Below are positions 4,380 to 5,453 of a stretch of DNA of 28,081 bases, one piece after another; the stretch's first letter is position 1, and each line of letters opens with the position of its first letter. A program made the position numbers and the translations under genes. The stretch comes from a virus. Location of the stretch: the IMG/VR virus record IMGVR_UViG_3300029953_000630. The stretch is one strand, 5' to 3'. Below the pieces are notes generated by a model, which was not told where the DNA came from, did not search any database, and was given only the letters and a program-made list of their open reading frames with translations.

Positions 4380-5453
4380 GTGGGTATTCACCATAACTAT
4401 CATGTTACTCCACAAGCGTGGAAGTACCCTACTGTAGCGGAACCATCCGGTATTGTCTTCGATGGCTTCTCCCCGAACCTGAATAAAGACTTGCACGTCG
4501 GACACCTGAAGAACCTTTGTGTGGCAGCGGCGATAGCGAATATCACCAGTGCCAAGCCTGTCGCCATGTTGGGGGCAGCAAACGGGGTTAAAGACGGTGC
4601 TCTGACAGGGTACAAAGCGTGGTGTCAACTCGCGGGTTACCACCCGGAGATTTATTACGACACCGGGCTCCCGGCTCCGACTGTGGCTCTGACTGATGGT
4701 GAGGATGAGTACGCGGGCTGCAAGATGCTGGACACGGTGGTGGTTTACAAGTCCTCGGGTGTGGCGACTTATGCCGCTCACGATTTGAGTTTCGCGGAGT
4801 TGGTCAAGCCGGATTTCTACCTGACCGGGCAGGAGCAACATCCGCATTTCATCTCTTTAGGTCTGGGCGACAAACACTTGCCCATGGGGCTTGTTCTGGG
4901 CACCGACCAAAAGAAGATGCGGAGCACGGTGAAGCTGGATGGGGAGCAAGCCAATGCAATGACCGCCGACGAACTGATGGGTGCCGTCTTGGCAGTTCTC
5001 AAGCCCACCACCGAGCAGCCGACAGAGTTAGCTTGGAATGTGCTGGCGTGGCAGTTCAACTCCACCTCAGTGGTGAAGAATACAGTTTGCGACGTGAAGA
5101 GCTGGTGCAACATTAGCAGCCCCGGCATCTACATCTCGCACACCAATGCCAAGATTCAGAAGGCCTTGCTGCTTGCAGGAGAGGCTGACCCGAGTCAGAT
5201 GACACCGGAAGACGTGGCTCTGTGTGGGTACGCAAGCTACTTCCAATTCTACTGGCAAAAAGCCATTGACGAGAAGGAGCCGTGCCACATCGCACAGTTC
5301 ATTCTGAAGCTGGCAAAGAAGCTCTCTGAGGTCTACAGCAAGAAGTCGATTCAACATGGCGACTCCGGGCTGGTCTACTCACTGCAATACGCAGGTGGGG
5401 TGCTTCAGCAGGGGATGGTTTTGTTGGGTATGAAAGTGTTAGAAAAAGTTTAA
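4380..5453 (+). CDS. argS: Compact class I arginyl-tRNA synthetase-like protein (357 aa, GTG start)
   Basis: FSPNLNKDLHVGH matches the ArgRS P-N-P-T-G-P-L-H-V-G-H motif. LGTDQKKMRSTVKLDGE matches the ArgRS G-x-D-G-K-K-M-S-T-R region. The C-terminal DALR-like segment reads GIYISHTNAKIQKAL...YFQFY. No N-terminal Add-1 domain. Flanked by five tRNA-Arg genes. Confidence 0.7.
   Translation: MGIHHNYHVTPQAWKYPTVAEPSGIVFDGFSPNLNKDLHVGHLKNLCVAAAIANITSAKPVAMLGAANGVKDGALTGYKAWCQLAGYHPEIYYDTGLPAPTVALTDGEDEYAGCKMLDTVVVYKSSGVATYAAHDLSFAELVKPDFYLTGQEQHPHFISLGLGDKHLPMGLVLGTDQKKMRSTVKLDGEQANAMTADELMGAVLAVLKPTTEQPTELAWNVLAWQFNSTSVVKNTVCDVKSWCNISSPGIYISHTNAKIQKALLLAGEADPSQMTPEDVALCGYASYFQFYWQKAIDEKEPCHIAQFILKLAKKLSEVYSKKSIQHGDSGLVYSLQYAGGVLQQGMVLLGMKVLEKV

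Follow-up and report, generated by a model that had tools for sequence, protein, structure and literature searches.

Aminoacyl-tRNA synthetase (aaRS) genes are known to follow the supply of their cognate charged tRNA through leader-peptide attenuation (pheST), T-box riboswitches and the translational operator of thrS. In pheST the supply is sensed by the ribosome as it translates a short leader open reading frame (ORF) with cognate codons. Bacterial programmed +1 frameshifting is known from very few genes, the classic autoregulatory case being release factor 2 (RF2). In the RF2 gene prfB of E. coli, ORF1 has 25 codons, the shift codon is CUU, a Shine-Dalgarno (SD)-like element lies 3 nt upstream and UGA occupies the A site (PMC5009743). 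In bacteria, +1 frameshifting is stimulated at this 3-nt spacing. CUU is also the shift codon of Ty1, whose site CUU-AGG-C includes a slowly decoded arginine codon, the shift being driven by scarcity of the A-site aminoacyl-tRNA (PMC5009743). Here we describe a phage gene of related architecture, found in a stretch of 28,081 nucleotides (IMG/VR record IMGVR_UViG_3300029953_000630), the whole of which is called the window below. It encodes a miniature arginyl-tRNA synthetase (ArgRS)-like protein of 385 amino acids (AA). We consider it probable (roughly 0.7) that this protein is made through a programmed +1 frameshift that raises its output when charged tRNA-Arg is scarce. At the level of sequence the frameshift itself is well supported by the split gene, its conservation and the cassette that surrounds it. 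From the same data we infer that the slip is ribosomal and that its efficiency tracks the Arg-tRNA supply.

The locus shares with prfB a short ORF1, CUU with an SD-like element 3 nt upstream, a gene body in the +1 frame, a conserved two-frame constraint, a short peptide as the default product and an A-site codon whose decoding would depend on the product of the gene itself. Unlike prfB, the A site holds a sense codon (CGN here, CAU and UGG in sister genes) instead of UGA, charged tRNA would be sensed in place of release factor, the genes are phage synthetases and re-pairing in the arginine and histidine cases would take place on UUC rather than UUU. The locus resembles RF2 autoregulation in its logic without being a member of the RF2 case. 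Like Ty1, it has CUU in the P site and an arginine codon in the A site. However, the tRNA for the AGG of Ty1 is rare at all times, whereas major arginine codons are used here, so that any slowness must be conditional. Moreover, a bacterial SD stimulator is present and the shifted product would be the enzyme that relieves the shortage. As for pheST, T-box and thrS genes, synthetase expression is proposed to be coupled to the supply of cognate charged tRNA, but there is no terminator/antiterminator, tRNA-binding leader RNA or run of cognate codons, and the read-out would be a change of reading frame inside the coding sequence. Neither the literature searched nor Atkins et al. 2016 (PMC5009743) yielded a report of a +1-frameshifted synthetase gene or of a miniature ArgRS family, an absence that is not proof of novelty.

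Split genes and their proposed shift sites

The gene starts at GTG 4295 (Table 1). The first 21 codons of ORF1 (4295-4357) correspond to the synthetase N-terminus, one base behind the main frame, and main-frame homology begins at 4359 (AGFDYKPVG..). The coding unit is 4295..4357 plus 4359..5453, a single base being skipped, and its 385-AA product is colinear with uninterrupted relatives. Among 5.8 billion proteins searched, 192 relatives were found, many of them 385-400 AA long and starting MKPMPE.IGVG.... The start of ORF1 is homologous to the N-terminus of uninterrupted relatives such as P0010 (MKPMPEHIGVGITAMTSLECL..); G11 is kept in at least 90% of 92 family members, and relatives carry AGGAG or GGAG at the same distance from their ATG as GAGGAG from GTG 4295. 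In the window the junction reads CUG-GAG-UAC-CUU-CGC-C, with GGAG-UAC-CUU-CGC at 4348-4360. The predicted fused protein joins ..SIAPLEYL to AGFDYKPVGIHHNYH and contains the junction peptide ...APLEYLAGFDYKPVGIHH....

The identical +1 split at the identical site is found in 11 distinct phage lineages (the window, L001, L002, L055, L056, L057, L058, L066, L063, L065 and L148), with 44-76% AA identity to the window. They are drawn from independent JGI, ENA and Logan samples; the fetched contigs are at most 233 kb long, and the P0011 cluster of the L055 lineage lies, according to its record, on a contig of 310 kb. Since the same split recurs at the same site in 11 lineages from independent samples, it is far beyond chance. 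In every lineage the shift codon is preceded, at a distance of 20-27 codons, by a start with an SD of its own, and followed by an intact +1 ORF of 362-373 codons. The P-site codon is CTT in nine lineages and GTT in two (L063 and L065). The 0-frame A-site codon is an arginine codon in all 11, with CGC, CGT, CGA and CGG all occurring: CTT-CG(C/T) in seven lineages, CTT-CGA-TAA in L066, CTT-CGC-TGA in L148 and GTT-CGG in L063 and L065. All 11 skip a C, while the +1-frame residue at this place varies (A, V, G, D). The upstream element is GGAG-NNN-(C/G)TT in ten lineages and GGTG in L148, and the 0-frame stop follows one to four codons past the shift codon, that is zero to three past the arginine codon. 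Variation in the alignment columns is greatest at third codon positions, counted in the 0 frame ahead of the site (16/21 codons) and in the +1 frame after it (8/9).

CTT accounts for 12% of leucine codons in the genes of the window, where CTT-CGC occurs in frame at two other places without an SD-like element. A scan of both strands of the fetched loci (1.07 Mb) asked for CTT or GTT 3 nt after an SD-like element, with the 0 frame closing in five codons or fewer and the +1 frame open for 120 AA or more. In phage loci it gave 18 hits, every one of them a synthetase gene with its cognate codon; two further hits, in cellular loci, are apparently spurious. A slightly stricter pattern, with three SD motifs and a minimum of 100 AA for the +1 ORF, is found once on the + strand of the window, at 4355. 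All 12 truncated-looking ArgRS-like gene calls whose DNA was examined are split genes, one of them (L067) at another site. In L067 (648-kb contig, protein P0046, 2703-3000) the +1 break precedes DGFSPN and reads ..AAG TAC GTC TTC GCT TGA cta cgt.., with no arginine codon. This single unexplained case could be a shifty stop (GCU-UGA-C) or an error. The ArgRS-like genes found in IMG/VR are uninterrupted only; the split clade came from a metagenome scan and contig look-ups. In a neighbour-joining sketch, split lineages stand at no fewer than three places amid uninterrupted ones, so that the split either was kept for long and lost at times or was gained more than once.

The same cassette heads miniature genes of two other families, resembling histidyl-tRNA synthetase (HisRS) and tryptophanyl-tRNA synthetase (TrpRS). 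The HisRS-like genes (about 204 AA when fused; top NCBIfam model hisS, E 7.5e-49) have their split at (SD-like)-N3-CTT/GTT-CAT. Eleven sequences show it: the window, L002, L057, L013, the IMG/VR contigs L150, L151, L153, L155, L156 and L157 (31-608 kb) and Phosso (L160), a cultured Sinorhizobium phage of 469 kb (PV764938.1). The TrpRS-like genes (245 AA; NCBIfam trpS, E 7.8e-32) are split at GGTG-CGT-CTT-TGG in L056 and L159, whose base compositions are very different. In these the skipped base is T rather than C and the A-site codon is UGG. The A-site codon is thus cognate to its own enzyme in all three families (Arg CGN, His CAU, Trp UGG). A single-protein query of IMG/VR identified no further split TrpRS-like gene, and an alignment query gave 12 loci with no split among them (5 judged by translation, 7 by one-piece matches from the N-terminus).

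The Phosso gene (4029-4686 of the record, 3893-4555 of the locus) reads ..CTC CGA GGT TGT CTT CAT CGA AGC TGA, and its predicted junction joins ..TLRGCL to IEADYEEVILPSIWEQQTFIDK. The GenBank coding sequence named 'histidyl-tRNA synthetase' begins downstream of the shift site and the frameshift is unannotated. The HisRS-like gene of the window (660-1170, + strand), which adjoins a tRNA-His gene, is decayed, unlike those of the ten other sequences, although its 5' CUU-CAU cassette is intact. About 99 nt (757-855) are inverted relative to L002, L057 and L150, with FEEILLPLLEPAEIYVDKAGAEILGQMYTFPD encoded on the minus strand; near 926 a deletion of about 99 nt has removed motif 2 (RYERPQAGRYREF), and another frame break precedes GAQKQICGGGSY. 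It could be a pseudogene or an assembly artefact.

The proposed mechanism would operate as follows. Ribosomes would initiate at GTG 4295 behind GAGGAG and after 20 codons hold CUU in the P site and CGC in the A site, with the anti-SD paired to the GGAG 3 nt upstream of CUU. Prompt arrival of Arg-tRNA(Arg) would lead to decoding of CGC and release of a 24-AA peptide at TGA 4367-4369. With the A site left empty, the peptidyl-tRNA(Leu) would re-pair from CUU to UUC, skipping C4358, and translation would proceed in the +1 frame from GCC 4359 to TAA 5453. With a GAG anticodon the new pairs would be G-U, A-U and G-C, one Watson-Crick pair better than on the UUU of prfB. Scarcity of charged tRNA-Arg would raise synthetase output and abundance would lower it, a homeostatic feedback. 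CGC and CGT are the major arginine codons (35% and 32% respectively in 13 genes of the window, together 67%), and the phage carries a tRNA-Arg(ACG) which, once its A34 is edited to I, would read the sensor codon CGC. The gauge would accordingly monitor the principal pool of Arg-tRNA, probably with a low basal level of shifting. In a more general form, the proposal is that large phages gate miniature aaRSs by SD-N3-CUU and a cognate A-site codon, making each enzyme only when its charged tRNA is short; we give this wider version even odds.

Several observations weigh against the proposed mechanism. The CGC and CGT codons, as the commonest arginine codons of the phage, are not constitutively slow like the AGG of Ty1, and when the cell is replete the basal shift may amount to a few percent. 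The invariant skipped C of the ArgRS-like and HisRS-like genes could partly reflect better re-pairing of tRNA-Leu on UUC instead of selection on the codon in the A site. GUU, the P-site codon of L063 and L065, re-pairs poorly on UUC, and in these lineages the shift may occur instead at a nearby (C/G)CU-UGA. The interspersion of split with uninterrupted lineages in the neighbour-joining tree makes the cassette dispensable. No covariation supports a conserved RNA structure at the shift site (RNAalifold, 8 sequences, -7.2 kcal/mol). The chance that three families would all show a cognate codon is about 0.02, a rough figure that assumes the skipped base alone to be free, and the agreement is suggestive without being overwhelming; independent lineages within families lower this figure further, and their kinship bars a clean probability. 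On the side of the enzyme, the aminoacylation that we expect of a product without Add-1 has to be set against that very lack and against a low equivalog score: the best NCBIfam model is argS (TIGR00456), with 46.2 bits for a cut-off of 261.65, which is not reached.

Of the alternatives, the one that survives best, though we hold it to be unlikely, is that the +1 frameshift is real but constitutive. It would then set a fixed low yield or a fixed ratio of peptide to enzyme, and the cognate A-site codon would be incidental. CGC, CGT, CAT and TGG are indeed ordinary, often-used codons, the skipped C may serve re-pairing on UUC, and an SD-like element with CUU alone can drive some +1 shifting (PMC5009743). 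An incidental codon is harder to reconcile with three synthetase families each carrying its own, with the TrpRS-like genes skipping a T to give UGG, and with the ArgRS-like genes, where the third base of CGN is free while C and G are fixed, though the +1-frame residue is not conserved.

An ArgRS-like protein without Add-1

The earlier note on this stretch, made without database searches, had recognized an ArgRS homologue that lacks the N-terminal Add-1 domain but keeps the HVGH and KMRST-type motifs and a shortened DALR region. Profile searches and structure prediction agree with this assignment. The profile of the family matches only ArgRS in the PDB (E down to 1.7e-22). An AlphaFold2 model of the fused 385-AA protein with 91 homologues has a predicted local distance difference test (pLDDT) score of 96.3 and a predicted TM-score (pTM) of 0.93, and the mean pLDDT is 97 for residues 1-30, which span the junction. 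In a Foldseek comparison with the PDB, ranks 1-20 are all ArgRS (TMq 0.64-0.74), followed by GluRS (about 0.40) and CysRS (about 0.55), so that no other class I synthetase is closer. Within the 357-codon ORF starting at GTG 4380, the Pfam profile DALR_1 (PF05746) matches residues 268-356 (32.7 bits for a cut-off of 22.3, E 8.6e-8) and tRNA-synt_1d matches around the HIGH motif, slightly below its cut-off (E 5.7e-5). Pfam gives no Add-1 (Arg_tRNA_synt_N) match in this ORF.

Alignment to ArgRS places the deletions. Compared with the N. gonorrhoeae enzyme, the protein lacks about 65 N-terminal residues (Add-1) and about 85 residues of the Ins-1 region, which separates the HIGH helix from the second Rossmann half. 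About 40 more are missing further on, ahead of or inside the anticodon-binding domain. Around 50 residues, forming beta strands, precede the first Rossmann strand, versus about 100-140 in solved ArgRS. Like canonical ArgRS (1iq0, 6ao8, 4oby, 1f7u), the protein has a Rossmann HxGH core, a K-x-K/R-S/T-R loop, an arginine pocket and a DALR bundle. Unlike these enzymes of 560-630 AA, it is 385 AA long and its Add-1 is replaced by the beta strands. Catalytic and arginine-pocket residues are conserved. N61, H67, G69, H70, Y159, Q181, K207 and S210 are invariant in 92 members, and D56 and D163 are nearly so (at least 90%). D56, N61, Y159, D163 and Q181 occupy positions which we take to form the arginine pocket, from their roles in yeast and bacterial ArgRS structures. 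The core residues align with the ArgRS motifs (I/V)(D/E)xSSPN..HxGH, (T)Y..D(L/I)A and Q..HF. As far as profiles and predicted fold can tell, the protein is a distant ArgRS-type class I homologue, here called ArgRS-like: the HIGH motif, KMSKS-like loop, pocket residues and DALR domain are present and ArgRS is the closest class I synthetase, while the Add-1 domain and an equivalog-level argS score are missing.

It is improbable, in our view, that the product is a non-catalytic tRNA-Arg binder, as the earlier note had offered as a second possibility, acting as a decoy or shield against anticodon nucleases, or that it has some other activity. Such a role would be compatible with the frameshift. 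It would fit a protein without Add-1 and most of Ins-1 that scores far below the argS threshold, encoded in a tRNA island rich in known target species of anticodon nucleases. However, the 92 members show little or no variation in the HIGH motif, the KMSKS-like loop or the five arginine-pocket positions, which is unexpected of a plain binder and disfavours this reading, and an arginine decision codon makes regulatory sense only with a product that raises Arg-tRNA.

Some members carry additional domains. P0115 (573 AA, NCBI, 212-kb contig) and P0137 (1077 AA) have extra N-terminal fusions, and P0115 also shows a Cys-rich insertion after the KMSKS loop.

Start of the gene and origin of the frame break

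The gene had previously been delimited as a 357-AA ArgRS starting at GTG 4380 without an obvious SD, and its main feature, the putative recoding site, had gone unnoticed. The frame itself (+ strand, GTG 4380 to TAA 5453, 357 uninterrupted codons), its signature motifs and its shortfall of about 220 AA relative to bacterial ArgRS chains (577-592 AA) are confirmed. Its boundaries are not, since the coding unit is the one of 385 AA. No SD precedes GTG 4380, the 20 bases just 5' of it being CCGGGTTTGACTATAAGCCC, but the true start, 85 bases further 5', has GAGGAG. GTG 4380 is the sole in-frame start candidate of the +1 frame in the window. It is not conserved across the split lineages: L002 has ATG where the window has GTG, and in the L055 lineage, where no start is evident before HNYH, the gene caller was forced to Met 62, past the HIGH motif. 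The start without an SD is best read as an ORF-calling artefact, explained by the start at 4295 and the conserved +1 frameshift.

That GTG 4380 is an independent start, and the 24-codon ORF a separate leader peptide acting in reinitiation or attenuation, seems very improbable. Reinitiation is conceivable, as this GTG lies 11 nt past the ORF1 stop, and ORF1 ends in Arg-Arg codons in most lineages. However, besides the variable and SD-less start, ORF1 and 4359-4379 are both homologous to the uninterrupted N-terminus and are predicted to fold confidently as one, the variation right after the site is that of a +1 coding frame, and no terminator/antiterminator structure was found. Attenuation by a leader peptide was rejected on account of its one or two arginine codons, its weak fold and the lack of a terminator near 4295-4400. 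No promoter-like site was found around the gene; the only terminator-like site lies inside the ORF, at chance level.

That the frame break stems from faulty sequencing or assembly, or from a mutation that made the gene a pseudogene, can practically be dismissed: single-base breaks are common artefacts and the neighbouring HisRS-like gene is genuinely decayed, but the same break in 11 divergent and independently assembled lineages, with intact +1 ORFs and frame-appropriate substitutions, rules this out, and parallel cassettes are present in two more gene families.

Two other origins of the shift were considered. Transcriptional slippage was rejected since CTTCGCC contains no homopolymer run. 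A single quadruplet-decoding tRNA is unlikely because the four-base strings differ (CUUC, CUUU, GUUC). The anticodon loops inspected in the folds of a subset of the tRNAs appear to have 7 nt.

Table 1. Coordinates of the split ArgRS-like gene, of the HisRS-like cassette and of the tRNA-Arg genes in the window
Feature	Position	Strand	Remarks
Shine-Dalgarno GAGGAG	4282..4287	+	7 nt ahead of GTG 4295
ORF1, 0 frame	4295..4369	+	VKPMPEVVGVGVTSIAPLEYL-RRV-stop; ends at TGA 4367-4369
Internal SD-like GGAG	4348..4351	+	3 nt 5' of the shift codon
Putative shift site CTT CGC	4355..4360	+	CUU (Leu) in P site, CGC (Arg) in A site, C4358 skipped
ORF2, +1 frame, miniature ArgRS-like body	4359..5453	+	364 codons and TAA; includes ORF 4380..5453
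Predicted catalytic core	4461..4838	+	D56/N61 in DGFSPN 4461-4478; HVGH 4494-4505; Y159/D163 in TYAAHD 4767-4784; Q181 in EQHPHF 4833-4850
KMSKS-equivalent loop KKMRST	4911..4928	+	K207, S210; aligns with KKFKTRSG/GKPFKTRSG of solved ArgRS
DALR anticodon-binding domain, shortened	5181..5447	+	PF05746
HisRS-like cassette	ATG 660, GGAGG 709-713, CGT, CTT 717-719, CAT (His) 720-722, TAA 726-728	+	heads the decayed gene
tRNA-Arg(ACG)	3052..3128	+	one of four tRNA-Arg genes in the island
tRNA-Arg(CCG)	1902-1978		
tRNA-Arg(TCG)	2479-2555	+	
tRNA-Arg(CCT)	9921-9997		

Phage context and meaning

The family comprises about 120 clusters at 50% identity that score clearly above canonical ArgRS. It is all but restricted to large phage contigs, the longest of 676 kb. 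In cellular genomes (185,579 species genomes) the miniature type is present on only three contigs of metagenome-assembled genomes, the other matches being canonical ArgRS or the small ArgRS of CPR/DPANN, with 25-27% identity. The JGI pipeline already labels many members 'arginyl-tRNA synthetase'; the ArgRS homology itself is therefore not new.

The window is of phage origin, with rIIA, rIIB, Ku and HNH genes and an island of 14 tRNA genes with encoded CCA ends. The tRNA-Arg(TCG) has an odd D-loop (AATTGCATTA) without the GG pair, and the other three tRNA-Arg have GGA(T/C)(T)A with A20. Three tRNA genes on the + strand have long variable arms of class II type: 544-639 (CCA, Trp, 96 nt), 3981-4073 (GTT, Asn, 93 nt) and 5497-5585 (TTT, Lys, 89 nt). 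Such anticodons usually belong to class I tRNAs, and normal-sized tRNA-Asn and tRNA-Lys genes are also present. A 134-nt Rfam tRNA match (3653-3786, + strand, 51 bits), which ARAGORN does not call, has a tRNA-like acceptor and T arm around an insertion of about 60 nt that may be an intron or an unusual insert.

Among the other genes of the + strand, an ORF of 819 AA (22504-24963) matches the shoulder domain of the major vault protein (PF11978, E 3.5e-26) and a vault repeat (PF17795), unusual in a phage. Two genes of the R2K-clade ATP-grasp type lie at 8279-9124 and 20938-21846, and homologues adjoin the ArgRS-like gene in relatives (L060 4690-5559, L148 1545-1847). In other relatives (L063 and L065), Amidoligase_2 and GATase genes lie upstream.

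The Add-1 domain reads A20 in the D-loop of tRNA-Arg, its main identity element, and its absence raises the question of how a miniature ArgRS selects its tRNA. The idea that the phage tRNA-Arg had lost A20 along with Add-1 is unsupported, three of the four keeping the GGA(U/C)(U)A D-loop. A protein about 190 AA below any solved ArgRS would be a useful minimal scaffold.

The +1 shift would explain the systematic mis-annotation of such genes, which are called as truncated ORFs or as ORFs lacking a start. The prfB architecture would have been recruited by phage synthetase genes of three enzyme families, with the stop codon replaced by a cognate sense codon. If the reading is true, RF2 autoregulation would have its first counterpart built on a sense codon, and synthetase regulation a new class; if the site senses charged tRNA it would be a natural, portable and amino-acid-specific translational sensor, usable as an in vivo reporter of tRNA charging. 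The cultured phage Phosso, with its HisRS version, makes the idea directly testable. Gating of this kind would let a phage make the synthetase for example during host shut-off, starvation or a tRNA-targeting defence.

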